The position numbers and the translations under genes are program-made. Positions 1-12,404 of a stretch of 12,404 nt of DNA are shown here, piece after piece; position 1 is the first letter of the stretch; the number at the start of each line of letters is the position of its first letter. The notes beneath the pieces were generated by a model. It did no database searches. It had not been told where the DNA came from and saw nothing but the letters and a program-made list of their open reading frames with translations. Origin of the DNA: a virus. The stretch is from positions 1 to 12,404 of the IMG/VR virus record IMGVR_UViG_3300045988_169823. One strand, written 5' to 3'.

Positions 1-249
1 GGGTATATCCCCCCCCTCCGTGAAAAAATTTTTCCCATTGTCAGAATATTCAGATTGCTTTAGTTCGCTAAAGTGCTAAAGTAAATTGACAGAATATTTG
101 TAATGCTTTAGTTTATTAAAGCGGTGAAGTGATATGCAAAATATTCTAACAATTCAAATCACCACTAAAATAGATGTTAGAAAATTCTAACAATAAATAT
201 CAATGACCGGATAAATGTTAGAATATTCTAACAATAATTAACAAAATAA
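1..249. repeat. Left inverted terminal repeat (ITR), 249 bp perfect; imperfect match continues to ~257
   Basis: 1..249 is the exact reverse complement of 12156..12404. It starts at window position 1 with GGGTATATCCCCCCCCTCCG. The first mismatch is at 250, then AGGTGGA matches again. Confidence 0.95.
141..240. repeat. Array of three ATTCTAACAAT(W) sites at ~40-bp spacing inside the ITR
   Basis: ATATTCTAACAATT at 141-154, GTTAGAAAATTCTAACAATA at 176-195 and GTTAGAATATTCTAACAATA at 217-236. The last is a perfect 16-bp palindrome, GTTAGAATATTCTAAC. Spacing is ~40 bp (~4 helical turns), and the array is mirrored in the right ITR. Confidence 0.85.
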
Positions 250-269
250 AAGGTGGAACTTGTCCACCT
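238..269 (-). terminator. Rho-independent terminator for the leftward gene, at the inner edge of the left ITR
   Basis: The hairpin stem is AGGTGGA (251-257) / TCCACCT (263-269) with an ACTTG loop. On the - strand it is followed by TTTTATTTTGTT. It lies 14 nt downstream of the stop codon of CDS 284..502 on the - strand. Confidence 0.7.
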
Positions 270-283
270 TGGATACACATTAT

Positions 284-502
284 TTAATATTTATCAACGT
301 TTAAATCGTACCATTTACCTTTAGTTCTATAACTAAATTCGTTTGTACCTACCTTGTTTAAAAGAACTGTATAAAACTCTTTATCTTGGTAAAATGAACT
401 AACTTGTCTTTTAGCTCCTAGCCAAGTTTTAGCGGTGAAACCTGTTTTCCACTTATCTCCATCGGTGGTTGTAATATTAGCAATAAAATTCACGACTTCC
501 AT
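284..502 (-). CDS. Hypothetical 72-aa basic Lys/aromatic-rich protein; the only minus-strand gene, adjacent to the left ITR
   Basis: ORF track entry 284..553 (-). The likely true start is the internal ATG (rc of 500-502), preceded by AGGAGG (rc of 511-516) at 8-nt spacing. It has its own promoter and terminator. Confidence 0.6.
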   Translation of the reverse strand: MEVVNFIANITTTDGDKWKTGFTAKTWLGAKRQVSSFYQDKEFYTVLLNKVGTNEFSYRTKGKWYDLNVDKY

Positions 503-543
503 AATAATAACCTCCTGTAATTTAGAACCTTTTCTATACTTAT

Positions 544-572
544 ATAATATCATATTAGGTGTTTAAATGCAA
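544..572 (-). promoter_or_regulatory. Leftward sigma70-like promoter (-35 TTGCAT, 17-bp spacer, extended -10 TGaTATTAT)
   Basis: The reverse complement of 544-572 reads TTGCAT-N17-TATTAT with TG at -15/-14, placed ~35 nt upstream of the RBS of CDS 284..502. Confidence 0.55.
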
Positions 573-615
573 CTGATTTTTGAAAATAAATAAATATAAA
601 AAATTTAAAATATTG

Positions 616-645
616 TTGACAAAAACTTAAAAAATCTGTTATTAT
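616..645 (+). promoter_or_regulatory. Early promoter P1 (-35 TTGACA, 18-bp spacer, extended -10 TGtTATTAT)
   Basis: Consensus TTGACA at 616-621; TG at 637-638; TATTAT at 640-645. It is divergent from the leftward promoter and sits ~50 nt upstream of the RBS of CDS 694..930. Confidence 0.65.
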
Positions 646-693
646 ATAATCATAGAAAACAAAAACACTTAAAACATAATAGGAGGTATTACC

Positions 694-930
694 ATGATAG
701 AATTTACAGTAGAAGAAATAACACCTATGGTTGGTTGTGTCTGCTGGTCAATCAAAGCAAGCACTGTTAGAGGTGCTAAGATAAAAGCGACACGCTATGC
801 TAAGAAAACATCCGATATAAATATTTTATGGAATGATGTTTGTGTTGCTTTTAAGAAAAACGGCAAATGGGTAGGTGGTCGTAATATTGAAGTAACAAAC
901 AATAACTACGTTAAAAAACATTTAGCATAA
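694..930 (+). CDS. Early protein, 78 aa, hypothetical
   Basis: ORF with AGGAGG at 681-686 and ATG at 694. It is the first gene downstream of P1. Confidence 0.6.
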   Translation: MIEFTVEEITPMVGCVCWSIKASTVRGAKIKATRYAKKTSDINILWNDVCVAFKKNGKWVGGRNIEVTNNNYVKKHLA

Positions 931-947
931 AACAGGAGGTCATTATT

Positions 948-1148
948 ATGGAAACAATAATCACTAAAAAACAGTTTTTTAGCACGTTAGAATTTTTTTC
1001 TAATGACAGTAGGTTTAAATTAACAATTAGTCAATATCTTTCACCTAAACAAGAACCTCTAATCATTTACTATCACTTTCAAAGTAAAAATAAAAAATTT
1101 ACATTGGTGCACCTTTTAGATAATAATAGTTACCGTTACACTGATTAA
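948..1148 (+). CDS. Early protein, 66 aa, hypothetical
   Basis: ORF with AGGAGG RBS (ACAGGAGGTCATTATTATG). A terminator follows. Confidence 0.55.
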   Translation: METIITKKQFFSTLEFFSNDSRFKLTISQYLSPKQEPLIIYYHFQSKNKKFTLVHLLDNNSYRYTD

Positions 1149-1155
1149 CAACCAG

Positions 1156-1180
1156 CAAGGCGAAAGCCCTTGTTTTTTTC
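1156..1180 (+). terminator. Rho-independent terminator (GNRA-looped hairpin + T7)
   Basis: CAAGGC-GAAA-GCCCTTG hairpin followed by TTTTTTT, immediately after the stop codon at 1146-1148. Confidence 0.75.
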
Positions 1181-1196
1181 ACCTGTAAACTTACCA

Positions 1197-1212
1197 CTTT
1201 AGCACACTAAAG
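1197..1212. promoter_or_regulatory. Operator-like palindrome CTTTAG-CACA-CTAAAG upstream of P2
   Basis: Perfect 6-bp inverted half-sites with a 4-nt spacer, 15 bp upstream of the P2 -35 box. The same CTTTAG-N4-CTAAAG motif occurs in the ITR at 58-73, with related palindromes at 76-81 and 104-121. Confidence 0.6.
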
Positions 1213-1226
1213 CAAAATATTTATTT

Positions 1227-1255
1227 TAAAAAACTATTGACAAAAAACCTTAAAT
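1227..1255 (+). promoter_or_regulatory. Early promoter P2 (-35 TTGACA, 17-bp spacer, -10 GATAAT)
   Basis: TTGACA at 1227-1232 and GATAAT at 1250-1255. The flanks resemble P1 (TATTGACAAAAA...TTAAA). Confidence 0.6.
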
Positions 1256-1292
1256 TTGAGATAATAAATAATGTAGTAAGGAGGTGACAAAA

Positions 1293-1535
1293 ATGAAAAT
1301 AACAGTTCCATGTACAGTACTAACCGAAATTACCGATAATAAATCTATTGGCAACAGGTTAGTAGTCGGTGAGAGAATCTCTCGCCGTATTGCTCAACAT
1401 TCAGCACCCGACAATGTAAAGGTTGTTGACGCTGAATATATCGGTGTAAAAGCTGATATAACTGCTGATGAATTTACAGACGAATTTAAAGGAAAAATTA
1501 AAACCTATTTAGAGAAGTTAATCGAGGAGAGATAA
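1293..1535 (+). CDS. Early protein, 80 aa, hypothetical (acidic C-terminus)
   Basis: ORF track 1284..1535 begins at a GTG that overlaps the RBS. The likely start is ATG 1293, 8 nt after AAGGAGG (1278-1284). Confidence 0.6.
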   Translation: MKITVPCTVLTEITDNKSIGNRLVVGERISRRIAQHSAPDNVKVVDAEYIGVKADITADEFTDEFKGKIKTYLEKLIEER

Positions 1536-1536
1536 T

Positions 1537-1890
1537 ATGTTTGAAGAACTGAATAAAAGTTTCGAGAGTGTTTTCACTGTAGAACCTCCCGAAAACGCCG
1601 TTTATTTGAAGTTGGTTGATATGAAACCCGATACCATGTATACCATGATTTCGTGTTTCGTAAATCCGAAATCTAAGTATGGCGAACACGGCGTATTAGG
1701 CGTGCAAGAAGGTCAGAACTTGTTTTGGTTGTCTTTGCCCCAGCACCTAACAGGTATCATCAAACAGATTTTGGCAACACCTGCTATGATAGAAGCAGTC
1801 AACAACGGTAAGGTTGGCTTCACGGTGGAAAGTTTCTTCTCTAAGAAGTATAATAAAGAAGGGCACACCATCAAATTTAAGGATTTATAA
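1537..1890 (+). CDS. Early protein, 117 aa; hypothetical, possibly a ssDNA-binding protein (weak)
   Basis: ORF with GAGGAGAG RBS, coupled to the upstream gene (TAA 1533-1535, ATG 1537). Size and position are like phi29 p5, but the function is not supported by clear motifs. Confidence 0.5.
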   Translation: MFEELNKSFESVFTVEPPENAVYLKLVDMKPDTMYTMISCFVNPKSKYGEHGVLGVQEGQNLFWLSLPQHLTGIIKQILATPAMIEAVNNGKVGFTVESFFSKKYNKEGHTIKFKDL

Positions 1891-1892
1891 GA

Positions 1893-1916
1893 TGTTTCAC
1901 GTGAAGCATTTTTATA
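1893..1916 (+). terminator. Weak terminator / CACGTG-centred palindrome
   Basis: ATGTTTCACGTGAAGCAT is a near-perfect 18-bp palindrome followed by TTTTTA, 3 nt after the stop at 1888-1890. Confidence 0.4.
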
Positions 1917-2024
1917 AGGCAAGGGATGAACCGAAATCACTATCCCTTAATCTATCCAAGAGAAGTTGTTAATTTTAGAATAATTTAGGTGTCGTAACAT
2001 TGGTTATACTTTATAGTTGAAATG

Positions 2025-2055
2025 GTTTTAGCTATTTCGCTGTTTCAGCTATTTC
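2025..2055. promoter_or_regulatory. Direct repeats GTTTyAGCTATTTC x2 (17-bp period) upstream of the embedded promoter
   Basis: GTTTTAGCTATTTC at 2025-2038 and GTTTCAGCTATTTC at 2042-2055, centred ~-55 and ~-38 relative to the TATAAT at 2085-2090. Confidence 0.5.
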
Positions 2056-2078
2056 ATAAAGTCTTTAATTCCTGCTAA

Positions 2079-2113
2079 GTGTGCTATAATAACATATAGC
2101 ACACTATTTTTTT
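2079..2113 (+). terminator. Strong rho-independent terminator with an extended -10 promoter (TGCTATAAT, 2082-2090) in its left arm
   Basis: Perfect 10-bp stem GTGTGCTATA (2079-2088) / TATAGCACAC (2095-2104) with a 6-nt loop, followed by TATTTTTTT (2105-2113). TGCTATAAT fits the extended -10 consensus TGnTATAAT. The RBS AGGAGGG (2114-2120) follows immediately. Confidence 0.7.
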
Positions 2114-2126
2114 AGGAGGGAACATC

Positions 2127-2759
2127 ATGATAGGAACTACGATTTTAAAGATAACCAGCAAGCTGGTAGGTGGCAGTAAAGGTAAAAGCGGTAAACTTAG
2201 TAAAGCAGAACAATTAAGAGATAATGCAAACAAGAAACGGATTTTAGCTAAAAAACGTGAGATACAATCACTTATGAATAAAGCTAACAAACGTTTGAAA
2301 CGCTTAGAACAAGCCAACCTAAAATCATCGCCAGCATATAAAGGTCTTTATAGAGAGGGTGGTTGGACGGAAAGTGAATCAAGGTTTGGTGTACGTGGTA
2401 AAACAGCCAAAGAGATAGATAGAGAATATTTACGAATTAAAAAATTTTTGGCTGATAAAACATCTACCGTTCGAGGTGCAACATTGATATTAAAACAAAC
2501 TGCTAAAAACGTAGGTCTGAAATATAAAACGGTTAGAGAATTGAGAGAAATATCCCCGAAATTTTTTGAATTAGCCAGTAAAGCCAAACAGTATTTAGAG
2601 AGTAGTAACAGACAAGCAGAAGCACTAGACTATAACAGGATTTTTGTTGCTATCAACCAGCTGACAAGGAAAGGTAAAATAGATTTTCAAGATACTAAAG
2701 ACGCAACCGAAAAAGTGAATGTATTAATCAATGAAATCAATGATATGATGGGTAAATAA
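2127..2759 (+). CDS. Putative terminal protein (basic, 210 aa) for protein-primed replication
   Basis: It lies immediately upstream of, and is coupled to, the pol B gene, as in phi29/Cp-1. It is Lys/Arg-rich with a strong AGGAGGG RBS. A loose resemblance to the phi29 TP N-terminal region rests on recall only. The call is positional and the priming residue is unknown. Confidence 0.5.
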   Translation: MIGTTILKITSKLVGGSKGKSGKLSKAEQLRDNANKKRILAKKREIQSLMNKANKRLKRLEQANLKSSPAYKGLYREGGWTESESRFGVRGKTAKEIDREYLRIKKFLADKTSTVRGATLILKQTAKNVGLKYKTVRELREISPKFFELASKAKQYLESSNRQAEALDYNRIFVAINQLTRKGKIDFQDTKDATEKVNVLINEINDMMGK

Positions 2760-2761
2760 CT

Positions 2762-4888
2762 ATGGTTAAATACGAGCAGGAATTAATAAAAAATAATAGC
2801 GAAAAAATAGTTTCTTGTTACGACTTTAGAATTAAAAAGATGGTCAAATATTATAACACGATTTTTTCTTTCGATATTGAAACGACTTCTACATATATAG
2901 ATGATGAAAAATTTGCTTTTATGTATGAGTGGACGTTCGGCAAACTGGATGATGTTTCACGCGAAACAATTTGCTACGGCAGAAGTTGGAACGATTTTTT
3001 AACTCTATATAATGAAATCGTTGCTGGATACGGTACTAATGAAGAAAAACGTTGTATAATATGGGTACATAATCTAGGTTACGAGTTCCAATTTATGCGT
3101 AAATATTTCAGTTTTTTAAATGTATTTTCAGTAGACGAACGAAAACCTATCAAAGCATTAACTGTTGATGGTATTGAGTTTAGAGACACTTATATCCTTT
3201 CAGCTATGTCACTAGCCAAGGTCGCTGATAACCTGTCAGAACATACAATTGAAAAAATGGTAGGCGATTTAGATTATAAGCTGGTTCGCACTGAAAAGAC
3301 AATATTAACAGATAAAGAACTCAAATATTGTGAAAATGATGTTAAAATAATTTTATATTATATAGCAGAACAAAAGGAACAATTTTACAACAATATAGGC
3401 AAAATACCATTAACAAATACAGGCAGAGTAAGAGACTATGTTAGAAACAATTGCTTGTATACGAATAAATCACATAAAAAAGCTAGTGCTGGAAAATTTA
3501 ATCGCTATCGAGCTTTAATGCAAGAACTCACTATAACTTCTCATGAATACTCACTATTAAAACAATGTTTTGCTGGTGGATATACACACGCTAACTCATA
3601 CTATGTAAATAAAAAGCTAGAAAATGTATCAAGTATTGATTTTACTTCCAGCTACCCGTTTGTTATGCTATCTGAAAAATTTCCAATGTCGGAACCTAGA
3701 AAATTAGAAAATTTAACACAAGAACAATTTGAAACGCTGGTTGACAATGAAAATCACGGTTTAATGATGAAAATTACTTTTCACGATATTGAAAGTAAAG
3801 TAATATGTGATGATTATATTAGCGAGCATAAATGCCAAAACACACATAATCAAATAGTTAATAATGGTCGCGTTCATTCAGCAGACTTTTTAACTTTAGT
3901 TGTAACCGATTTAGACTATAAAATTATTAAAGAATGTTATAGTTATTCAAGTCTTGAAATACATGAAATCTATGATTTTTATATGACGTATTTACCAAAA
4001 GCAATAATTAAATCAATTTTAGACTTGTATAATAAAAAAACAACGTTGAAAGGTGTAGAAGGTTATGAAACTGAATATATGGTTAGTAAGCAAATGCTTA
4101 ACTCAATATATGGTATGTGTGTTACCGATATTGTTAGGGATGAAATCTTATATAATGAAGAAGTCTGGGAAACTGAAAAAGCTGATATTGAAAAAAATGT
4201 AGAAAAATACAATACCAGCAAAAGACGTTTTCTTTATTATCCGTGGGGTGTGTGGGTAACTGCTTATGCTAGATTTAACCTATGGACAGGAATTTTAAAT
4301 ATTTATGATGATTATGTTTATTCAGATACTGACAGTATCAAGTTTTTAAACCTAAAAAAACATGAAAATTTTATAAATAAATATAATAAAAACGTAAAAA
4401 AGAAACTCAAAAAAATGTGTGATTTCATGAATATTGATTTTAAATTATGTGAACCTAAAACCAAAAAAGGTGAAAAAAAACTAATAGGTGTATGGGATTT
4501 TGAAGGTACTTATGATGTATTTAAAACGTTAGGTGCTAAGCGTTATTTAGTAAAAAAAGATGATAAATATTATTTAACGTTAGCTGGTTTATCTAAAAAA
4601 GCTGGTATGAATTATATCGTAGAAAAATGTGAAAATATAGAAAAAAATATTTTTAATTTTTTCAATAATAATATGTATATTCCAGCTAATAAAACAGGTA
4701 AAAACACACATACATATATAGATGATGTGATGGAAAAATGTATAACCGATTGTGATGGTAACAGAGTTTTTGTTAAATCTTTGTCTAGCATACACTTAGA
4801 AGAATGTGAGTTTAGCTTGTCAATGTCAGATAAATATTTAACATTTTTGAATGAAGTTCAGATGGGTATTTTAAGTAAGGAAGTGTAA
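2762..4888 (+). CDS. Protein-primed family B DNA polymerase (708 aa)
   Basis: Motifs Exo I FDIETTS; Exo II HNLGYEFQF (Glu at the usual Asp position); Exo III YCENDVKII; motif A DFTSSYP; motif B KQMLNSIYG; motif C YSDTDS; KxY LGAKRYL. A second in-frame ATG at 2840 (MVKYYNTIFSFDIETT) would place Exo I at residues 12-14 as in phi29, so the start is ambiguous. Confidence 0.9.
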   Translation: MVKYEQELIKNNSEKIVSCYDFRIKKMVKYYNTIFSFDIETTSTYIDDEKFAFMYEWTFGKLDDVSRETICYGRSWNDFLTLYNEIVAGYGTNEEKRCIIWVHNLGYEFQFMRKYFSFLNVFSVDERKPIKALTVDGIEFRDTYILSAMSLAKVADNLSEHTIEKMVGDLDYKLVRTEKTILTDKELKYCENDVKIILYYIAEQKEQFYNNIGKIPLTNTGRVRDYVRNNCLYTNKSHKKASAGKFNRYRALMQELTITSHEYSLLKQCFAGGYTHANSYYVNKKLENVSSIDFTSSYPFVMLSEKFPMSEPRKLENLTQEQFETLVDNENHGLMMKITFHDIESKVICDDYISEHKCQNTHNQIVNNGRVHSADFLTLVVTDLDYKIIKECYSYSSLEIHEIYDFYMTYLPKAIIKSILDLYNKKTTLKGVEGYETEYMVSKQMLNSIYGMCVTDIVRDEILYNEEVWETEKADIEKNVEKYNTSKRRFLYYPWGVWVTAYARFNLWTGILNIYDDYVYSDTDSIKFLNLKKHENFINKYNKNVKKKLKKMCDFMNIDFKLCEPKTKKGEKKLIGVWDFEGTYDVFKTLGAKRYLVKKDDKYYLTLAGLSKKAGMNYIVEKCENIEKNIFNFFNNNMYIPANKTGKNTHTYIDDVMEKCITDCDGNRVFVKSLSSIHLEECEFSLSMSDKYLTFLNEVQMGILSKEV

Positions 4889-4891
4889 AAA

Positions 4892-5977
4892 ATGAAGTAT
4901 TATAGTTTACGTGAAATTTTAAAGAAAAAAGCGACTTATAATGTGATAATCGGTGAAAGAAGTAACGGCAAAACATATTCAGTTTTAAAATATTCCGTTC
5001 AAAAATATGTTAAAACAGGAGGTCAAATAGCTATTGTCAGACGCTGGAGAGAGGATGTCATAGGACGTAGGGCAAGCGGGATTTTTAGTGCTTTAAATGT
5101 TGATGGTACAATTAAAAAAATAACAAATAATGAGTTTTCAGAAGTCTATTATTATGCAGGTAAATTTTACTTATCAAATATTGATGAAAACGGTAAGCAT
5201 ATATATTCAGATGAAAACTGTATAGGTTATACTTTTGCTTTAAGTGAAAACGAACATAATAAATCAATTTCTTATCCAAAAGTCACAACAATTTTTTTCG
5301 ATGAATTTTTAACAAAACATATTTATTTAGCTGATGAATTTGTGCTGTTTATGAACACTCTTAGCACAATTATTCGCCAGCGTGATAACGTTGAAATTTT
5401 CATGTGTGGTAACACTGTTAATAAATATTCTCCGTATTTCGCTGAAATGGGATTATCACATATACAAAAACAAAAACAGGGTACTATCGATGTTTATAGC
5501 TATGGTGATAGCAATTTAAAGGTTGCCGTTGAATACTGTGCAAGTTTAGCTAAACAAAAGAAAAATAATTTTTATTTTGCTTTTGATAACCCGAAACTAA
5601 ACATGATTAAGTCTGGTGTGTGGGAATTAGGCATCTTTCCACATTTACCGAAAAAATATAATAACAGGCAAATACTTTTTACCTACTTCATTATTTTTGA
5701 ACAGCAGATTTTTCAGTGTGAAATTATTGACTATAAAAATGGTAATTTAATTACTTTCATCCATTTAAAAACTTCTGAAATAAAAGATGAAAGTCATGAT
5801 TTAGTATACACGCTTGATGATAGTGAAAAGATGAATTATAATAAAAATATATTAAAACCAGCAACAAGTATTGGTGAAAAAATTAAATGGTTTTTTACAC
5901 ATGAAAAAGTATTTTTTCAAAATAACGATGTTGGCAACACAATAACTAACTATCTTAAAATTTGTGGAGGTATCTAA
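4892..5977 (+). CDS. DNA encapsidation ATPase, phi29 gp16-like (361 aa)
   Basis: Walker A GERSNGKT near the N-terminus, followed by the YVRRW/IVRRW-type motif. Walker B TTIFFDEF. Size and N-terminal layout match phi29 gp16. Confidence 0.85.
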   Translation: MKYYSLREILKKKATYNVIIGERSNGKTYSVLKYSVQKYVKTGGQIAIVRRWREDVIGRRASGIFSALNVDGTIKKITNNEFSEVYYYAGKFYLSNIDENGKHIYSDENCIGYTFALSENEHNKSISYPKVTTIFFDEFLTKHIYLADEFVLFMNTLSTIIRQRDNVEIFMCGNTVNKYSPYFAEMGLSHIQKQKQGTIDVYSYGDSNLKVAVEYCASLAKQKKNNFYFAFDNPKLNMIKSGVWELGIFPHLPKKYNNRQILFTYFIIFEQQIFQCEIIDYKNGNLITFIHLKTSEIKDESHDLVYTLDDSEKMNYNKNILKPATSIGEKIKWFFTHEKVFFQNNDVGNTITNYLKICGGI

Positions 5978-6159
5978 TGGAATATGCACAAGCAATATCT
6001 CAAATTGGTTTTCCAATTTCCATGTGTTTACTGCTTTTAAAGCGTATGCAGGAACAAGACAATTTATACCGTGAAAATGAAGGTAAGCTAAGGGATGTAA
6101 TTGAACGGAATACACTGGCAATTACTAAGTTATTAAGAGAAGGTGATGTTAATGAGTAA
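5977..6159 (+). CDS. Small membrane protein, 60 aa, one predicted TM segment with a charged C-terminus; holin candidate
   Basis: ATG at 5977 overlaps the ATPase stop (TAATG) and GGAGG lies 7 nt upstream. The hydrophobic stretch AISQIGFPISMCLLLL is followed by a K/R/E-rich tail. The ORF track TTG start at 5962 is rejected. Confidence 0.45.
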   Translation: MEYAQAISQIGFPISMCLLLLKRMQEQDNLYRENEGKLRDVIERNTLAITKLLREGDVNE

Positions 6160-7327
6160 AAATAAACTTTTTGACAAATTTTATAACTATCAAGATAAAA
6201 CAAAAAATATAAACACTTATGTTTTTAACTATCTGAATAAGACTAACTCGATGTTTAAATATCATAATCTGCCCGAATCAATCCCTGCTGATATGCTAGA
6301 ATCGTTTTTACAACGCAATGGCTATGTTTGTATAGCTAAGCATGAAAACACTCTCTATGCCTTTGTAGGAGGGTTAGGAGGTGAATTGGATGTTTACTAT
6401 CGACCAACAATTTGTACGGTAGCAAATCCAGCTTTAAATCTTAGCAAGGATTTTGTTATTGATAAAGATTGCATTATCATGAAAAATGATACAAATTTGC
6501 AAGGGCTTTTACCTATTATTTTGCGATATTCTTCAATGCTGGTTGAAAACGATATATCGATGGTGTTGGCTACATATAACACCCGTATACAGAAAATAGT
6601 GAGTGCTAGTGATGATGGTACAATAGCAAGTGCAAAAGAGTATTTATCACAAATAGTTAGCGGTAAACAGGGTATCATTGCTGATAATGCTTTTTTGAAA
6701 TCTTTAGATGTAAAAGATAGTTCAACAGATAATAAGATTATAGAAGAACTTATCAAGCAAAACCAGTATCTTAAATCGTCTATGCTAAACGAGGTTGGTT
6801 TACAAGCTAATACGAACTTGAAAAAAGAACGCTTAGTGTCTGCTGAAATTGAAAGCAATTCAGAGAGTTTATACCCGATTGTTGATGATATGCTAAAATG
6901 CAGAAAAAACGCACTAGAAAAAGTGAATGAAATGTTTGGTACTAACATAGAAGTTGAATTTAATTCCAGCTGGGACTTACGACCTTTAAATGGAATGTCA
7001 GTACACAACACGGATGATGAAATTGATATGAAAGATTTGGAGAGCGGAAACAATGAAAACGATGATAAAAAAACTTCTGCTGAAACTGATGGAGGAGACA
7101 GTGCAGAAGAAAATAGTGGAACTAGAAACACGGATAATGATGAAAATTCATTACAAGATAATGAAGAAAATGGAGGAAATGGAGAAGAAGAATCAAGCGA
7201 TGATAGAGAAGAAAACAGTGGAAATAATGAATCAACAGATGATGAAAATAAAGAATCTATAAAAGATGAAGAAAATGAAAACAATGAAAAAGACGAAAAC
7301 GAGGATGAAAAAGATGATAACAAATAA
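6152..7327 (+). CDS. Head-tail connector (portal/upper collar), phi29 gp10-like, with a ~106-aa polyacidic C-terminal extension
   Basis: Strong collinear similarity to phi29 gp10: NLPESIPADMLE..GYV, GGLGGELDVYY, NLKKERLVSAEIESNSE, LEKVNEMFGTNIEVEFN. Start taken as ATG 6152, 5 nt after the AAGGTGA SD. The track GTG 6143 and ATG 6146 remain possible. Residues from ~289 (nt 7007) to the end are D/E/N/S-rich and low-complexity. Confidence 0.85.
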   Translation: MSKNKLFDKFYNYQDKTKNINTYVFNYLNKTNSMFKYHNLPESIPADMLESFLQRNGYVCIAKHENTLYAFVGGLGGELDVYYRPTICTVANPALNLSKDFVIDKDCIIMKNDTNLQGLLPIILRYSSMLVENDISMVLATYNTRIQKIVSASDDGTIASAKEYLSQIVSGKQGIIADNAFLKSLDVKDSSTDNKIIEELIKQNQYLKSSMLNEVGLQANTNLKKERLVSAEIESNSESLYPIVDDMLKCRKNALEKVNEMFGTNIEVEFNSSWDLRPLNGMSVHNTDDEIDMKDLESGNNENDDKKTSAETDGGDSAEENSGTRNTDNDENSLQDNEENGGNGEEESSDDREENSGNNESTDDENKESIKDEENENNEKDENEDEKDDNK

Positions 7328-7664
7328 TGAATATGTTGATTTAATTCAAGAAGTTTTAAGCGAAAGAGATTTACTAGAACAATTAGTAGAAGAACTTTCA
7401 GAACTCCAGCAGGTCAGCATAAAACTAATAAGAATAAAAACGCTTAATAAACCAAACGCTGAATTTTATGATTTACTGAAAAATTTTAGAGAAGAAGAAA
7501 AAGACATTATTTCAATTCTTCATCTTTTAGATGATAACGACAAATATGGTTGGATAGATGATTATTATAAATATGAACGCTGGTATAATAGAATTATAAG
7601 TGGGATGTATAACAGAACTATGAAAGAACGATATAATAAAATTACAGGAGGGTGTTCAAAATGA
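7314..7664 (+). CDS. Hypothetical 116-aa helical protein
   Basis: Track ORF 7266..7664. Its N-terminus (MKKMKTMKK...) is an out-of-frame read of the connector polyacidic region. The likely start is ATG 7314, 8 nt after GAGGA, overlapping the connector stop by 14 nt. Confidence 0.55.
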   Translation: MITNNEYVDLIQEVLSERDLLEQLVEELSELQQVSIKLIRIKTLNKPNAEFYDLLKNFREEEKDIISILHLLDDNDKYGWIDDYYKYERWYNRIISGMYNRTMKERYNKITGGCSK

Positions 7665-8236
7665 TTTATGGTATAGATGTATCTGAAAATAACGGTTATG
7701 TTGATTGGCAAAGATTGAAAGAAACCAGCAACCTAAAATTTGCTATCATACGTTCTAGTTTCGGGTTTTCAACTGATAGCAGGTTTTTAGACAATATTTA
7801 TCATGCTTTAGAAAATGGTTTTAAGTGTGGAGCTTATCACTACTCTTATGCTTTAAATTCTGATGAAGCTATCAAAGAAGCTAGAACTATGAAAAGCATT
7901 ATAGAAAAAAGCGGTGTGTTGCTTGAATTACCCTGCTTCTTTGATATTGAAAATGATAGCTATAAAGCAAAAAACGGTTTTGAGTATACGCAAGAAAATG
8001 TTACCAATATTTGCCAAGCCTTTTTAGATGAAATTAAACCTTTAAATTGTGGCGTTTATGCCAACCTAGATTGGCTAACAAATTATGTTGATTGGCAAAA
8101 ATTAGGGTGTTCAATATGGTCAGCACAATATAATTCCAGCGATGATTTCAAAGGTTATATGTGGCAGTATACAGACAAATTGCATTTAATAGGCAAAAAT
8201 TTTGATGGTAATGTTTTATATTTAGATGAAATTTAG
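7661..8236 (+). CDS. Endolysin, GH25 muramidase catalytic domain only (191 aa)
   Basis: GH25 signatures: GIDVSENNGYVDW, FAIIRSS, GAYHYS, FFDIEND (the D-x-E region), GVYANLDW, WSAQY, MWQYT...FDGNV. AGGAGG at 7646-7651 and ATG at 7661. There is no cell-wall-binding domain. Confidence 0.85.
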   Translation: MIYGIDVSENNGYVDWQRLKETSNLKFAIIRSSFGFSTDSRFLDNIYHALENGFKCGAYHYSYALNSDEAIKEARTMKSIIEKSGVLLELPCFFDIENDSYKAKNGFEYTQENVTNICQAFLDEIKPLNCGVYANLDWLTNYVDWQKLGCSIWSAQYNSSDDFKGYMWQYTDKLHLIGKNFDGNVLYLDEI

Positions 8237-8247
8237 AAGGTGTTGAA

Positions 8248-8823
8248 ATGAACTTATATGAAAGATTTAATAAATCGTTATTGTGGGATAAAATTAATGA
8301 ATATCAAGCGTTTAGCTGGATTGATATTTTCGATAATGCAAGTCTTAATTTGTTGTGGTTAAATAAATACCATAGCAGGAGTTGTAATTCGTTGGCTGAG
8401 GATTTAGACGATGATAACATAGCTAAAATAATAGCTGGTATGTTTGTTTTTAATTGGAATATTGAATATAATTTATTAAAAGAAAATTGGTTAAAAAATG
8501 GCGATTTTTCAACGACTTATACAGAGAAAAAAACCGAGAAAAACACGGAAACAGGAACGGAAAATAACAACGTAAAAAATAATGTGTCTGCTTTTGATGA
8601 TGAAAATTATACAAATAAAGATGAAGAAGTTTCTACAAAAAATAATGAAAATAACGGCACTAATGACGTTGAAAGAACCTACACAACCAATGGTTATAAT
8701 TCAGCACAAATAAAGAATAAAATTGATTATGTAAAGTATTTGCAAAAAAATAACTTCTTTGATAATATAATAACAGATGTTAATAATTTACTGACTATGA
8801 ATATTGTTGTGGAGGATGATTAA
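8248..8823 (+). CDS. Hypothetical 191-aa protein directly upstream of the capsid gene (scaffold or decoration candidate)
   Basis: ORF with AAGGTG RBS. Trp-rich N-terminal half and a low-complexity N/T/E-rich C-terminal half. The scaffold role is a positional analogy to phi29 gp7 only. Confidence 0.5.
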   Translation: MNLYERFNKSLLWDKINEYQAFSWIDIFDNASLNLLWLNKYHSRSCNSLAEDLDDDNIAKIIAGMFVFNWNIEYNLLKENWLKNGDFSTTYTEKKTEKNTETGTENNNVKNNVSAFDDENYTNKDEEVSTKNNENNGTNDVERTYTTNGYNSAQIKNKIDYVKYLQKNNFFDNIITDVNNLLTMNIVVEDD

Positions 8824-8825
8824 AA

Positions 8826-10007
8826 ATGGAAGTAAAACAGATTTACACTTTAATGAATAATGTTACTAACGAGGTGCTAGGTCAAGAGGATTTAGTCAAA
8901 GAGGATTTGTCAAATGTAATTGATATTGGTACTGAAATTTTCAACCAAAATGCCGTTGATAATTATGTCAAGACTTTGGTAAATCACATCGGAAAAGTTA
9001 TTTTCGTTAATCGCCCATACGCTGGTAATGCACCTTCTGTTTTGATGGACGGCTGGGAGTTCGGAAGTGTACTAGAAAAAATCAATGCAGATATTCCCGA
9101 AGCTACCGAAAATGAGAGTTGGAATTTGGTTGATAAGCAGGAATATAAACAGGATATTTTTTATAAACCTTCTGTTAGTGCGAAATTCTTTAATAAAAAG
9201 GTTACTTTTGAAGTGCCTATGTCATTTACTGAAATGCAGGTAAAAGAGAGTTTCTCAAGTGCTGAGCAATTGAACGGCTTCTTGTCTATGATTTACAATG
9301 CCATTGATAAGTCAATGAGTATCAAGGTTGATAGTTTGATTATGAGAACTATCAATAATATGATTGGCGAAACTATCGCCCATGAATACGCTGATAGCAC
9401 GGATAGTACAGGTAAAAAGTTGGTTGCCTTATCGTCAAAAAGCGGTGTAAAAGCAGTTAATTTGCTTTTCTTGTATAATGCTAAATTCACTAAAACTTTG
9501 ACTGCTGAACAGGCAATTACCGACCCCGACTTTATTCGTTTTGCTAGCTATACCATTGGTTTGTACCGTGATAGACTTTCTAAGATTTCAACACTTTTCA
9601 ATGTTGGTGGTAAAGAACGTTTCACTTCTAAAGAATACTTGCACACAATCTTACTTAGCGACTTTATCGCTAGTGCTGATGTTTATCTCAATTCGGACAC
9701 TTTCCACGATGATTTTGTGAAACTTCCAACAGCTGAGCGTGTTCCTTATTGGCAAGGTTCGGGTACTGATTATAGCTTTAGCAAGACTTCTGATATTCAC
9801 ATTGCAACCGCTGGTGGTGTTGATGTAGAGGTTAGCGGGGTTATCGGCGTAATGTTCGATAGAGACGCTTTAGGTGTATGCAACACCAGCAAACGGGTAA
9901 CTACGAACTATAACGCTAAAGCTGAATTTTATAACAACTACTACAAATTTGACGCCAGCTATTTCAATGATTTGAATGAAAATTTCGTTGTATTCTTTGT
10001 TGAGTAA
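8826..10007 (+). CDS. Major capsid protein (393 aa)
   Basis: Largest structural ORF after the connector, with a GGAGGA RBS. A strong terminator directly follows, as expected for the most abundant structural protein. Loose resemblance to the phi29 gp8 N-terminal region. Call is based on size, position and context. Confidence 0.6.
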   Translation: MEVKQIYTLMNNVTNEVLGQEDLVKEDLSNVIDIGTEIFNQNAVDNYVKTLVNHIGKVIFVNRPYAGNAPSVLMDGWEFGSVLEKINADIPEATENESWNLVDKQEYKQDIFYKPSVSAKFFNKKVTFEVPMSFTEMQVKESFSSAEQLNGFLSMIYNAIDKSMSIKVDSLIMRTINNMIGETIAHEYADSTDSTGKKLVALSSKSGVKAVNLLFLYNAKFTKTLTAEQAITDPDFIRFASYTIGLYRDRLSKISTLFNVGGKERFTSKEYLHTILLSDFIASADVYLNSDTFHDDFVKLPTAERVPYWQGSGTDYSFSKTSDIHIATAGGVDVEVSGVIGVMFDRDALGVCNTSKRVTTNYNAKAEFYNNYYKFDASYFNDLNENFVVFFVE

Positions 10008-10019
10008 GAAGGGAGGAAG

Positions 10020-10047
10020 GGACGGTTTTTAACCGTCCTTTTTTATT
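10020..10047 (+). terminator. Rho-independent terminator after the capsid gene
   Basis: GGACGG(TT)-loop-(AA)CCGTCC hairpin followed by TTTTTTATT. The next ATG (10048) abuts the U-tract. Confidence 0.75.
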
Positions 10048-10479
10048 ATGAAAATTACTTTTTATAACACAAACTCACCTAATAATAAAATCCAAAAAGA
10101 GTTAAAAAATGCTTTGGAAAAAGATATTAAATTTAAAATGGAAGGTAGTATTTTAACACCTGTTTTGACTATTAAAAGTGAAACTTTTTTTAATTATAAT
10201 TACTGTTTTATTGAAAAGTTTAAACGTTATTATTTTATAAATGATATTGAAATTTATCCTAATAAAATATATATCTTGCATTTAGAAGTTGATGTTTTAA
10301 TGAGCTTCAAAGATGATATTTTAAATAGTCGGGCAACAATTAATCAAGAAACTGTTTTTAATAAATACTACAATTCAGATTATCAAAACTTAGAAAACTT
10401 TGAAGAACACATTTATAAAAGTGATGTAACATTAAGTAGTGAAAAGAATATTATTTTGTCTACGTTAGGAGGGTTATAA
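10048..10479 (+). CDS. Hypothetical 143-aa structural protein; possible homolog of the N-terminal domain of the phi29 tail knob
   Basis: ORF track. There is no proximal SD, but GGGAGGAAGG lies just 5' of the terminator hairpin. The segment YCFIEKFKRYYFINDIEIYPNKIYILHLEVDVLMSF resembles the phi29 gp9 N-terminal region as I recall it. Unverified. Confidence 0.5.
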   Translation: MKITFYNTNSPNNKIQKELKNALEKDIKFKMEGSILTPVLTIKSETFFNYNYCFIEKFKRYYFINDIEIYPNKIYILHLEVDVLMSFKDDILNSRATINQETVFNKYYNSDYQNLENFEEHIYKSDVTLSSEKNIILSTLGGL

Positions 10480-12113
10480 TGGCAGCTAATAGGTTGAGAT
10501 TGTATATTAAAGATAATAAATATGCTAATGTGGATATTAATGGTTCTGATTTATCATGGGTAAGCCAACCTGTTAATGCAGATACTTATAGTTTAGATAG
10601 TTCCGAATGTTATATTTTTTGGAGTGGCTTATCAAAAAATGAACATACTGACAGTTTTGAAATTGCTTTAGCTGGTAGAAAAATAACTGGTATTCAATGG
10701 TTGTCATTAAATAGAACTGATGTTACTGCTGATTTACAAAAATTTGGTATAATTCCATCGTTTCCAAATGGTCATTTCAAATTAAATATCCAATCATTGA
10801 AGTTGTTAAGTGATTTTATCACTAAGAATGACGGTAGCGTTTACACTGATTATAACTACATAAACTTTTCATTTGATACAGGTAAACAACAGTATAACAT
10901 AACTCAAAATCTGACTAATTGTGTATCTGATTTTACTTATGATAAAATAGATGAAGGCGATAATACATTAACCTTAACTTGTTCTGAAATGTGCTTTTTT
11001 GATGATGTGCCCACATTAACAATTGGCGAAACAGTCACTAATTTTACTTTAAACGATGATAAAAATATTGCAACATTAACGATTAATATAACGGGTGATT
11101 GTGTTGTAAATGCAACTGCTACGCAATATTATACTTATCAAGAAACCTTGACTAATTGTAAGTCGAATTTTACAGGTAAAACATTACTCAAAGAAGGTAC
11201 TACGACTTTTACATTTACTGCTGATAGTGGATATATCTTTGGTGAAAACGGAAGTATATATATCCAACCTGTTACAACAAGTATTGAAGGTAACGGAAAA
11301 AGTGTTTTAACTAAAACATATTTGATAGCTGGAAACACAAGAGTTACTTTATCCGCTATTAAAAAAGTTGAAACTTTAAGCACTTTTAATCATTTATATT
11401 TAGTTGATAATGATATTTTGAGTTCTTTATCAAAGAAACGCTATTATAATTCAAACGGTGTTGAAAGTGATTATGGACGTTTTATTACTGATTTATATAT
11501 CATACCTTTCAACATTGAGGATATTTTAAGTGAACAGGCAAATATTATTCTAGGGTTTTATGATACACAAATTCCAGCTACACAAATAAATGGTTACACT
11601 TATAATTTGAATTTAGGAAAAATAATTGTTAATGAAAATTATGGTAATGTTTACGATTATATTAATTCAAAAACGATTTTGCACGTTCCATTTTTTAATG
11701 TTATTGAACTACCTATTGAAAATGTTATGAACCAAACATTACAGTTAAATGTGATAGTTGACTTGTATGATGGTAGTGGCACTCTTAACATAGTTAGTTC
11801 TCTTGGTGGTTTAATTCATAGTGAAACATCTAATATTTTCAAACACATACCCTATATTCAGAGAACAACAGAAACAAGTTTCTTACAAACATTAAACACT
11901 ATTAATAATGATATTACTAATGCTTATTTAAGTATTATAAATAATGTTCCATATAATGTTATTGATGATTTTGGTAAAAACGTTGTTGAATATATGGAGA
12001 TTAAATCACTCACTAATTACTTTAAAATCAACGATATTAAAATGAATACATCAGCAACAAACGATGAAAAAAATAAAATCGTTGAATTGTTGAAAAATGG
12101 TTGCTTTATTTGA
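10479..12113 (+). CDS. Tail protein, 544 aa (tail knob / receptor-binding candidate)
   Basis: Its ATG overlaps the stop of the 143-aa ORF (TAATG at 10477-10481). It is the last and second-largest ORF, beta-rich in appearance, and followed by a terminator. Confidence 0.55.
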   Translation: MAANRLRLYIKDNKYANVDINGSDLSWVSQPVNADTYSLDSSECYIFWSGLSKNEHTDSFEIALAGRKITGIQWLSLNRTDVTADLQKFGIIPSFPNGHFKLNIQSLKLLSDFITKNDGSVYTDYNYINFSFDTGKQQYNITQNLTNCVSDFTYDKIDEGDNTLTLTCSEMCFFDDVPTLTIGETVTNFTLNDDKNIATLTINITGDCVVNATATQYYTYQETLTNCKSNFTGKTLLKEGTTTFTFTADSGYIFGENGSIYIQPVTTSIEGNGKSVLTKTYLIAGNTRVTLSAIKKVETLSTFNHLYLVDNDILSSLSKKRYYNSNGVESDYGRFITDLYIIPFNIEDILSEQANIILGFYDTQIPATQINGYTYNLNLGKIIVNENYGNVYDYINSKTILHVPFFNVIELPIENVMNQTLQLNVIVDLYDGSGTLNIVSSLGGLIHSETSNIFKHIPYIQRTTETSFLQTLNTINNDITNAYLSIINNVPYNVIDDFGKNVVEYMEIKSLTNYFKINDIKMNTSATNDEKNKIVELLKNGCFI

Positions 12114-12134
12114 TGATTAAATAATATGTATCTT

Positions 12135-12165
12135 AGGTGGGCGAATGTCCACCTATTATTTTGTT
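12135..12165 (+). terminator. Rho-independent terminator of the late operon at the inner edge of the right ITR
   Basis: AGGTGG-GCGAATGT-CCACCT hairpin followed by ATTATTTTGTT. The stem sequence is identical to the left-end hairpin (251-269) but the loop differs. Confidence 0.7.
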
Positions 12166-12404
12166 AATTATTGTTAGAATATTCTAACATTTATCCGGTC
12201 ATTGATATTTATTGTTAGAATTTTCTAACATCTATTTTAGTGGTGATTTGAATTGTTAGAATATTTTGCATATCACTTCACCGCTTTAATAAACTAAAGC
12301 ATTACAAATATTCTGTCAATTTACTTTAGCACTTTAGCGAACTAAAGCAATCTGAATATTCTGACAATGGGAAAAATTTTTTCACGGAGGGGGGGGATAT
12401 ACCC
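12156..12404. repeat. Right inverted terminal repeat (ITR), 249 bp
   Basis: Reverse complement of 1..249, ending exactly at the last base of the window (...GGGGGGGGATATACCC). Confidence 0.95.

Follow-up and report, generated by a model that had tools for sequence, protein, structure and literature searches.

Protein-primed replication origins have been dissected in few systems, namely phi29, Nf/GA-1, Cp-1, PRD1, Bam35 and adenovirus. The adenovirus origin lies in an inverted terminal repeat (ITR) of about 100-165 bp and consists of a core (nt 9-18) bound by the complex of precursor terminal protein and polymerase, followed by NFI and Oct-1 sites. In phage phi29 the protein p6 reads a bendability pattern rather than a sequence and binds every 24 bp (PMC4974454), and in phage PRD1 initiation takes place with deoxyguanosine monophosphate (dGMP) opposite the 4th C of 3'-CCCC, followed by stepwise sliding back (PMC5175343). 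The origins of the clade of very small (11-13 kb) podophages that includes the Astrithrvirus-type phages of Gram-negative hosts are so far unstudied. Here we describe the ends of a genome of this kind, IMG/VR virus record IMGVR_UViG_3300045988_169823 (positions 1 to 12,404; this entire 12,404-bp stretch is referred to as the window), and compare them with ~55 related loci. The two identical 249-base ends are almost certainly protein-primed replication origins, in which a terminal core shared across the clade is followed by an array of dyad-symmetric sites.

The window is a complete linear genome of 30% G+C. Its left ITR (1-249) is identical at 249/249 positions to the reverse complement of its right ITR (12156-12404), with the first mismatch at position 250. 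An element at coordinate x in the left ITR thus recurs at 12405 minus x with 0 mismatches in 249 bp, so that each site exists at both ends, as a preliminary description of this DNA had noted. The same description had assigned the repeat to a protein-primed phage, and the gene content agrees. The window encodes a protein-primed-type family-B DNA polymerase (2762-4888, + strand) that matches PF03175 at E 3.9e-11, exceeding the gathering score, and phrog_1907 at E 2e-75. It also encodes a phi29-type Gp16 packaging ATPase, a phi29 connector, a GH25 endolysin and a phi29-type major capsid protein. The 117-residue single-stranded DNA-binding protein (SSB; 1537-1890, + strand) has the fold of the SSBs of protein-primed phages; its AlphaFold2 model (pLDDT 83) is an OB fold whose best match is the SSB of Staphylococcus phage JBug18 (TM score 0.81) and whose matches include PRD1 P12. 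Directly upstream of the polymerase lies a putative terminal protein (TP) of 210 residues with a basic N-terminus (2127-2759, + strand) that has homologues in 37/42 loci, including Astrithrvirus-type phages. The source genome is that of an uncultured phi29-like podophage. It shares with phi29 the virion and replication gene kit (polymerase, TP position, SSB, Gp16, connector and major capsid protein), a small early gene just upstream of that for the SSB (p6 before p5 in phi29) and the need for the end to be opened for the TP-polymerase, but the phi29 ITR is 6 bp long compared with 249 bp here.

A nucleotide search of the whole genome against annotated phages gave no match. By polymerase protein sequence the nearest cultured phages (~51% identity) are of the Astrithrvirus type, with genomes of 11-12 kb and Gram-negative hosts (astrithr/Astrid, Phanie, DU_PP_III and Entb_47). 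Uncultured relatives with 53-59% polymerase identity are common in IMG/VR and metagenomes, and polymerase scans of IMG/VR, JGI/ENA metagenomes and GTDB genomes returned no relative above 59% identity. A word-indexed protein search with the putative TP recovered close relatives on long contigs (L048, L049, L050, L053, L054 and L057), with 86-89% nucleotide identity across the genome, as well as the more distant L055, whose TP is 63% identical to that of the window. The Logan unitigs of the closest relatives, L047 and L044, end within a few nt of the ITR boundary, placing their ITRs outside the comparison. Two relatives on GTDB contigs (L040 and L041) were binned in a Clostridia and a Treponema metagenome-assembled genome, which is weak evidence of host.

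The terminal core (nt 1-37) is common to the clade and is composed of G3, TATAT, CC plus a C-run, a variable spacer and CCCA. The preliminary description had correctly recorded GGG at 1-3, C8 at 9-16 and GAAAAAATTTTTC at 22-34. Box A (GGGTATATCCCCCCCCTCCG; 1-20, + strand), which contains the G3 reiteration, TATAT and CC plus the C-run, is kept in Phanie, DU_PP_III, L032, L035, L031, L054 and L055, and is the proposed site of TP-polymerase recognition and initiation. Complete-looking termini read GGGTATATCCCCCCCCTCCG in the window, GGGTATATCCCCTCC in L054, GGGTATATCCCCCCTATC in L055, GGGTTATCCGCCCCCCTCC in Phanie, GGGATATCCGCCCCCCCCCC in DU_PP_III, GGGTTATCCCCCCCCTCCCCCC in L032 and GGTGTATCCCCCCTCCCCCCC in L035. 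Six of the termini (window, Phanie, DU_PP_III, L032, L054 and L055) start with GGG, L035 and L031 start with GG, and the first 14 nt of L055 are those of the window. Independent assemblies and cultured relatives begin at the same GGG as the window. Box B (CCCA; 34-37, + strand) contains an invariant C34 and a C35 that is at least 90% conserved in terminal alignment A1; it represents a second C-box, CCC(C)A, found at about nt 32-38 in all complete-looking termini (CCCA at 33-36 in L055 and 32-35 in L054). Lineages whose polymerases are only 48-59% identical, among them the cultured Phanie and DU_PP_III, have this core in common. A conserved core within the first ~20-40 bp, as in adenovirus-type origins, is thus present (alignment A1, L054, L055).

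The template strand of the window ends in 3'-CCCATATAGG. The earlier suggestion that a terminal reiteration would fit a sliding-back mechanism is strengthened by the conservation of 5'-GGG / 3'-CCC in six termini, comparable to the PRD1 3'-CCCC (PMC5175343), and by analogy initiation in the window may occur with dGMP on an internal C of 3'-CCC, followed by sliding back. The resemblance to PRD1, which likewise replicates a linear double-stranded DNA by protein priming, extends to a 5' G-run, ATA and a C-rich tract (GGGGATACGTGCCCCTCCCC in the 110-bp PRD1 ITR compared with GGGTATATCCCCCCCCTCCG in the window), to a 3'-C reiteration suited to dGMP initiation and stepwise sliding back (PMC5175343) and to an SSB fold related to P12. 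PRD1 differs in belonging to the Tectiviridae, tailless membrane-containing viruses of another realm, in carrying G4 rather than G3, and in lacking, within the first 240 nt read, both TAAAG blocks and an array of 18-bp palindromes. The terminal likeness is short and of low complexity, and thus does not establish common descent of the two origins. In L055 the unitig L055:1-190 crosses the genome terminus, running through the reverse-complemented ITR as far as ...GGGGGGATATACCC, then directly through an inverted copy of the first 12 nt of the contig into unique left-end DNA; this would be an artefact of the assembly graph at the ITR, or else a snap-back or head-to-head junction.

The two C-boxes are separated by a spacer (TGAAAAAATTTTT, containing the A6T5 tract; 21-33, + strand) that is free in sequence and roughly constant in length. 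The tract reads A7T4 in L054, L048 and L057 and A5T2 in L014, and the spacer is not AT-rich in Phanie, DU_PP_III or L032. The preliminary description had interpreted A6T5 as an easily melted unwinding element. By nearest-neighbour stability, however, 13.7% of the 13-nt windows of the genome are as weak or weaker, including several weaker windows within the ITR, whereas positions 9-21 rank within the top 0.02% of the genome's duplex windows for stability. With an unremarkable stability beside an extremely stable neighbour and no conservation across the clade, A6T5 was rejected as a DNA-unwinding element; it is a lineage-specific filling of the variable spacer and at most a locally conserved A/T-only stretch, kept among close relatives, beside an unusually stable core.

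Interior to the core, the ITR is dominated by a single motif. The 14-mer AATATTCTRACAAT (at most 2 mismatches) has 13 matches in the window, 12 of which lie in the ITRs, compared with an expectation of 1.32 +/- 1.16 and a maximum of 5; 0/200 shuffles reach 13 matches. Each ITR contains six copies (in the left ITR at 37-50(-), 85-98(-), 140-153(+), 181-194(+), 214-227(-) and 222-235(+), with their mirror images in the right). The ATTGnCAGAATATT and ATTCTAACAAT repeats listed previously are both present, at 37-50 and 85-98 and at 143-153, 184-194 and 225-235, respectively, but they are not distinct elements, being the one 14-mer AATATTCTRACAAT on opposite strands. Half-site octamers number 6 per 249-bp ITR and 2 in the 11.9-kb body. 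The dyad-symmetric sites (consensus TGTYAGAA-W-ATTCTRACA), one in each tandem unit, begin 2 nt past box B and have five centres, at 47.5, 95.5, 142.5, 183.5 and 224.5, spaced by 48, 47, 41 and 41 bp. The array is made up of a 48-bp tandem pair (37-84 and 85-132, 76% identical over 46 nt) followed by three 41-bp units, in place of the phasing of three sites at ~40 bp that had been proposed. At 10.5 bp per turn the five dyads fall at 0, 206, 17, 343 and 309 degrees, so that four lie on one helical face, as suggested earlier for the three ~40-bp-phased copies, and the second dyad faces the other way.

A full palindrome of 18 bp is present at sites 4 and 5, while sites 1-3 consist of the AATATT core and one arm. 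Site 1 (TGTCAGAATATTCAGATT; 39-56), with the left arm and the core, is invariant in L054, L048 and L049. Its mismatches at 51-53 in L053 coincide with the chimeric junction of that contig; the L053 right ITR (L053:10950-11520) is joined to unrelated DNA with a 166-aa open reading frame (ORF), and the contig is probably chimeric. Site 2 (TGACAGAATATTTGTAAT; 87-104) is the one on the opposite helical face; its 14-mer at 85-98 is invariant in close relatives, and position 101 is T>C in L053. Site 3 (ATGCAAAATATTCTAACA; 134-151) has the right arm and the core, and its 14-mer at 140-153 is also invariant in close relatives, with 136 G>A in L054. Site 4 (TGTTAGAAAATTCTAACA; 175-192) is palindromic apart from one central mismatch and lies inside a 41-bp unit (174-214) private to this genome, while site 5 (TGTTAGAATATTCTAACA; 216-233) is a perfect palindrome that is kept in relatives with variants of the centre or arm. 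The two palindromes reported in the preliminary description therefore exist, at a length of 18 rather than 16 bp, and the one at 175-192 has the core GAAAATTC instead of GAATATTC. Each 48-bp unit additionally contains a TAAAG block: block 1 (GCTTTAGTTCGCTAAAGTGCTAAAGT; 57-82) is formed by one inverted and two direct 8-bp TAAAG repeats, and block 2 (GCTTTAGTTTATTAAAGCGGTGAAGT; 105-130) lies in the second unit. The CTTTAG/CTAAAG palindromes recognised earlier belong to these blocks, with CTTTAG at 58-63 and 106-111, CTAAAG at 68-73 and 76-81, and TTAAAG at 116-121. The array does not resemble a Rep-iteron origin, in which an encoded Rep initiator binds direct repeats of ~17-22 bp beside an AT-rich unwinding element and DnaA boxes: no Rep-like protein is found among the ORFs, the dyads occur in both orientations at 41-48 bp, and the replication genes of the window are of the TP-polymerase type.

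No part of the genome is better conserved than the inner ITR (37-249). In pairwise alignments it is 93.7-97.7% identical to L054, L048, L049 and L053. The genome-wide alignments (L054, L053, L048) give 66-94% identity in coding genes and 77-81% in the promoter-bearing spacer 1149-1292. Within the window, the older internal duplicates are more informative than the close relatives on constraint of sites versus spacers. When units B and C are compared, 17/18 positions agree in the palindrome, as delimited by its own symmetry, and 13/23 in the remainder (p = 0.007), and in the 48-bp units the site and the TAAAG blocks are kept while the linkers have diverged. The centre of site 5 is AATTTT in L053, and its arm is TCAAACA in the L048 right end, L049 and L057. 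Overall the centres AATATT, AAAATT and AATTTT are found between constant arms, as would be expected of two half-sites contacted by a dimer.

Copy number of the units is less stable. The middle 41-bp unit (174-214) is missing from all five close relatives that cover the stretch (L048, L049, L050, L053 and L054; alignment A4) and, by inspection, from L057, leaving one half-site and one palindrome, so the three-site array described previously is not a fixed feature. The right end of L049 (L049:10000-10269) has at least 4 copies of the 48-bp unit, the contig ending inside the array. The perfect identity of the two ITR copies of the window suggests that they are still being homogenised, which is usually explained by repair through panhandles or recombination and may be so here. 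The two ITR copies of L048 differ at 2 positions, suggesting a strain mixture or incomplete homogenisation.

At ~55-58% polymerase identity, site 1 (TGTCAGAATATTCAGA) and the CTTTAG-N-CTAAAG / GYTAAAGT block remain recognisable in L035, L036, L021, L009, L007 and L031. The site 1 homologue is TGTCAGAATATTCAGACA in L035, L036 and L021, and the TAAAG module, also present in L006, L007, L009, L031 and L035, has a local similarity that beats 299-300/300 shuffles. Beyond site 1 and the TAAAG block, whose score is reached by 0-1/300 shuffles, L035, L036, L021, L009, L007 and L031 show no non-coding similarity to the window. Other sublineages have different repeats restricted to their ITRs, including 10-11-bp iterons of the TGTGTCAA type, GGACAGCC and CCGGTGGTGTCC; a shared origin of the window site with the TTGACACAA / TGTGTCAA iterons of L032, L013 and L010 was rejected, the alignment score being reached by 60-83/300 shuffles. 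L055 keeps the core and a two-unit tandem architecture with palindromes that differ from those of the window (ATCAGAACTGAT and TGTTTCAC(A/G)(T/G)GAAACA). As the sublineages and L055 retain the core and differ in their repeats, the rule for the clade is a conserved core with lineage-specific repeated sites. The ITRs of the Astrithrvirus-type phages (Phanie 171 bp, DU_PP_III 219 bp, Astrid 83 bp as deposited) share the terminal core GGG-(A/T)TAT-CC-C-run ... CCCCA in Phanie and DU_PP_III, but have no TGTYAGAA dyads, no TAAAG blocks and, at the thresholds used (no 8-mer repeated at least 3 times), no repeats of this kind; in these phages, unlike in the window, the early genes read inward from both ends. 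A search of IMG/VR with the 20-mer palindrome gave a single chance match, in a giant-virus contig.

Co-occurrence with the sites is seen for four phage proteins (those of 66 aa and 80 aa, the 210-aa putative TP and the polymerase), and these, with a host factor as the alternative, make up the list of candidate binders. Of the phage-encoded proteins, the leading candidate for dyad binding, as yet unproven, is the 80-aa early protein (1293-1535, + strand), which is 80-94% identical in amino acid sequence in all relatives with the same sites and whose gene always directly precedes that for the SSB, as the p6 gene does in phi29. In L055, where the palindromes differ, this protein is 31% identical (E 4e-8) to that of the window, compared with 63% for the TP and 43% for the SSB; the apparent co-variation of the 80-aa protein with the palindromes is suggestive but thin. 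The protein has no match in Pfam, PHROG, NCBIfam, PDB-profile or phage tblastn searches, and hhalign of its family against phi29 p6 gave a probability of 0.1%. Three other early proteins named in the preliminary description (72, 78 and 117 aa) are less suitable. The 117-aa protein was rejected as a duplex binder on account of its SSB fold, and the 89-aa and 78-aa proteins were rejected as essential binders, being absent from all close relatives that keep the sites; the 72-aa protein listed earlier is probably the minus-strand ORF 284-553 (89 aa) counted from an internal start. In the region 276-913, this ORF, its promoter region and the 78-aa ORF (694-930) are missing from most close relatives (L048, L050, L053, L054 and L057), and an 89-aa homologue is present in L047 only. 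In the putative TP family (alignment A8) a KTSTVRG-like motif (T112, S113) is invariant and the tyrosines Y133, Y156 and Y169 are invariant or nearly so, which makes these candidate priming residues; no similarity of the family to the phi29 TP or to any PDB chain was detected.

The inner edges of both ITRs are bounded by terminators. On the left, the outward-reading 89-aa ORF ends in an intrinsic terminator (250-270, - strand) with an 8-bp stem followed by TTATTTTGTT, its T-tail being formed by ITR nt 249-240; on the right, the last gene (10479-12113) ends in an intrinsic terminator (12134-12155, + strand) whose T-tail enters the right ITR. Strong early promoters, without a copy of the motif, lie at 616-645 and 1237-1265, and a promoter scan of the window ends found no convincing promoter within the ITR. 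With terminators abutting both ends and the early promoters further in, the ITR is most likely untranscribed. L048, L050, L053, L054 and L057 have a hairpin of the right-end type, GGTGGACATTCGCCCACC, at each end, and their ITR accordingly reaches across the terminator; the left hairpin of the window is a variant of the GGTGGACATTCGCCCACC type.

Together these features lead us to a model that we consider somewhat favoured on present evidence, in which a TP-primed origin core is combined with auxiliary dyad binding sites and a terminator-bounded inner edge. The TP-polymerase heterodimer would most likely recognise the terminal core (nt 1-37) and the parental TP, and TP-dGMP would be formed opposite an internal C of 3'-CCC and slide back, recovering the terminal bases as in PRD1. 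The dyad sites (nt 37-235) would most likely be bound by a dimeric, sequence-specific DNA-binding protein, and a dimer positioned beside the GC-rich, hard-to-melt core could recruit or stabilise the TP-polymerase and/or bend and open the end, while the T-tails of the convergent terminators at the inner edge would keep transcription from the origin. A more specific proposal is that the 80-aa family is a new sequence-specific origin-binding activator, a dimer that reads its own 18-bp dyads, co-evolves with them, replaces the p6-type mechanism and sets replicon specificity between co-infecting relatives; we regard this as tentative and rather doubtful. Such co-evolution would account for L055 having other palindromes and for the further sublineages having iterons of their own.

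The best reading of the origin type is a variation on known protein-primed origins, adenovirus- or pGKL-like rather than p6-like. As in adenovirus, a core near the end is followed within about 25-50 bp by partly dyad-symmetric sites, which bind sequence-specific stimulatory factors in adenovirus and may do so in the window. The adenovirus sites differ in being recognised by host transcription factors and in occurring once each, compared with the five sites of one motif in copy-number-variable units described here, and adenovirus uses jumping-back on GTAGTA where the window has a homopolymer. In the yeast plasmids pGKL1 and pGKL2, McNeel and Tamanoi reportedly found in 1991 that TRF1 binds inside the ITRs, which would make these protein-primed replicons that encode their own small ITR-recognising protein, a role only proposed in the window. 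These are eukaryotic cytoplasmic elements, TRF1 is basic and has no detectable relation to window proteins, and we know of no palindromic tandem array in the pGKL ITRs. The earlier statement that the architecture is unlike a p6 array is upheld: the window has sequence-specific dyads at 41-48 bp rather than a 24-bp (2 x 12) periodicity, and no p6 homologue is detectable.

Several observations weigh against the model of a TP-primed core with auxiliary binding sites. In phi29 and PRD1 the minimal origin is a short stretch of about 12-20 terminal bp. The number of palindromes falls from two in the window to one in relatives and the number of 48-bp units ranges from 2 to at least 4, so that extra copies must be dispensable. 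Among close relatives, variable columns make up 5/64 motif and 9/108 spacer positions (p = 1); the constraint is on the whole inner ITR and the sites alone are not visibly singled out. The comparison of motif and spacer in the 48-bp units is partly circular, since the motif blocks were defined from the repeats themselves, and three relatives have a T>A change in one palindrome arm (TCTAACA to TCAAACA). The 80-aa protein is without a recognisable DNA-binding domain and is net neutral or slightly acidic, its single-sequence AlphaFold2 model is unusable (pLDDT 53), and the L035 group has site 1 but no detectable 80-aa homologue. Nor did we find a description in the literature of the ITR anatomy of this clade; a review of phi29-like phages (PMC11476376) and the other papers found mention these phages without analysis of their ends.

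The unstable copy number, the missing contrast between motif and spacer among close relatives, the shortness of the minimal phi29 and PRD1 origins and the active homogenisation indicated by 100% identity of the two ITR copies would all be explained if the terminal ~40 bp alone were functional and the inner repeats were largely neutral products of tandem duplication or slippage, homogenised and perhaps exchanged as ITRs between co-circulating relatives. We consider this unlikely, because homogenisation from end to end cannot explain an identity of 94-98% between genomes whose genes are 66-94% identical, and because diverged units retain the dyad site and not the spacers, site 1 and the TAAAG block persist at about 55% polymerase identity, and neither dyad symmetry nor restriction to the ITR is expected from slippage alone. 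The palindromes might instead fold as single-stranded hairpins in the displaced strand and aid panhandle formation, pause SSB coating or act as structure-specific signals. The single-stranded ITR does fold with z = -4.4 and -3.9 (0/200 shuffles are as stable), its dominant hairpin pairs site 4 with site 5, and a long perfect ITR permits panhandles of the kind used in adenovirus type II replication. However, such z-scores follow automatically from repeated palindromes, the strongest hairpin requires the 41-bp unit that is missing in all close relatives, sites 1-3 are half-sites with little self-complementarity and the stems are weak and AT-rich, making this explanation very improbable.

Spo0A boxes near the phi29 origins set a precedent for the dyads being operators at which a host regulator or nucleoid protein would link phage replication to the physiology of the host, or would tether the ends. 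A host factor remains a live alternative as binder, since the L035 group shares site 1 and has no detectable 80-aa (or 66-aa) homologue, and the phage proteins considered here lack a recognisable DNA-binding domain; by eye only, the motif also bears a loose likeness to an AT-rich Firmicute operator consensus, and its presumed likeness to CodY or Spo0A boxes was not used. Against this, no tool matched a known operator, and the changed palindrome together with strong divergence of the 80-aa protein in L055 fits a co-evolving phage protein better, so we judge a host operator to be quite unlikely. A service to transcription (as operators, promoters or an insulator of early genes) or to packaging and end protection we would rate as highly improbable. 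Our reading by eye identifies a perfect -35 TTGACA (87-92) with a 17-bp spacer to TAGTTT and an early promoter-like TTGACG/TAGAAT within the DU_PP_III ITR, and a weak promoter-like match lies at 203-174 on the minus strand; yet motif copies are absent near the strong early promoters, and none is recorded elsewhere in the body, both ITRs lie downstream of outward-facing terminators, and the promoter-like matches at the right end equal the shuffle expectation. Packaging of phi29 does use TP-DNA ends, but an element present at both ends cannot confer polarity. Each of these explanations fits fewer observations than the model of a TP-primed core with auxiliary dyad sites.

The ITR shows no sign of encoding an RNA. 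An Rfam search of the window returned no match to the phi29-family packaging RNA (pRNA) at E <= 10 and no match of any kind in the ITR, which lies downstream of the terminators, and a pRNA or other ITR-encoded RNA was rejected on these grounds. Elsewhere, the non-coding spacer between the SSB and TP genes (1891-2126, + strand) is 93-94% identical to close relatives, compared with 72-91% for the flanking genes, and folds well as RNA (z = -3.15), with a strong terminator hairpin (2078-2105 plus T7) at its end. Pairing in its predicted helices is preserved by nearly all substitutions, one pair of them compensatory, and it has no Rfam match; from this pattern the spacer could encode a small RNA, for example one that works with the Gp16/connector motor in the manner of pRNA. 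Many members of the clade have a 14-bp palindrome, GTTTCAnnTGAAAC (L010:77, L013:155, L030:17, L055:77/184, L054:1341, L053:1181 and, with one mismatch, window 1894-1907), which recurs at the inner edge of ITRs, where the SSB-TP spacer starts and, in many loci, between the polymerase and gp16.

Three things emerge from the comparison: a candidate minimal origin of ~37 nt, marked by a PRD1-like G-run and two conserved C-boxes; candidate auxiliary sites in the form of the 18-bp dyads and the TAAAG blocks; and a few candidates for the protein that would bind them. Should the sites prove dispensable, the ITR would stand as a well-documented case of tandem-repeat turnover in a homogenised terminal repeat. 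If the sites and a binder are real, the array would offer TP-primed systems, such as those used to amplify DNA in vitro or for orthogonal replication, an origin module that is orthogonal and addressable by sequence, and would explain how closely related linear replicons keep their replication specificity.

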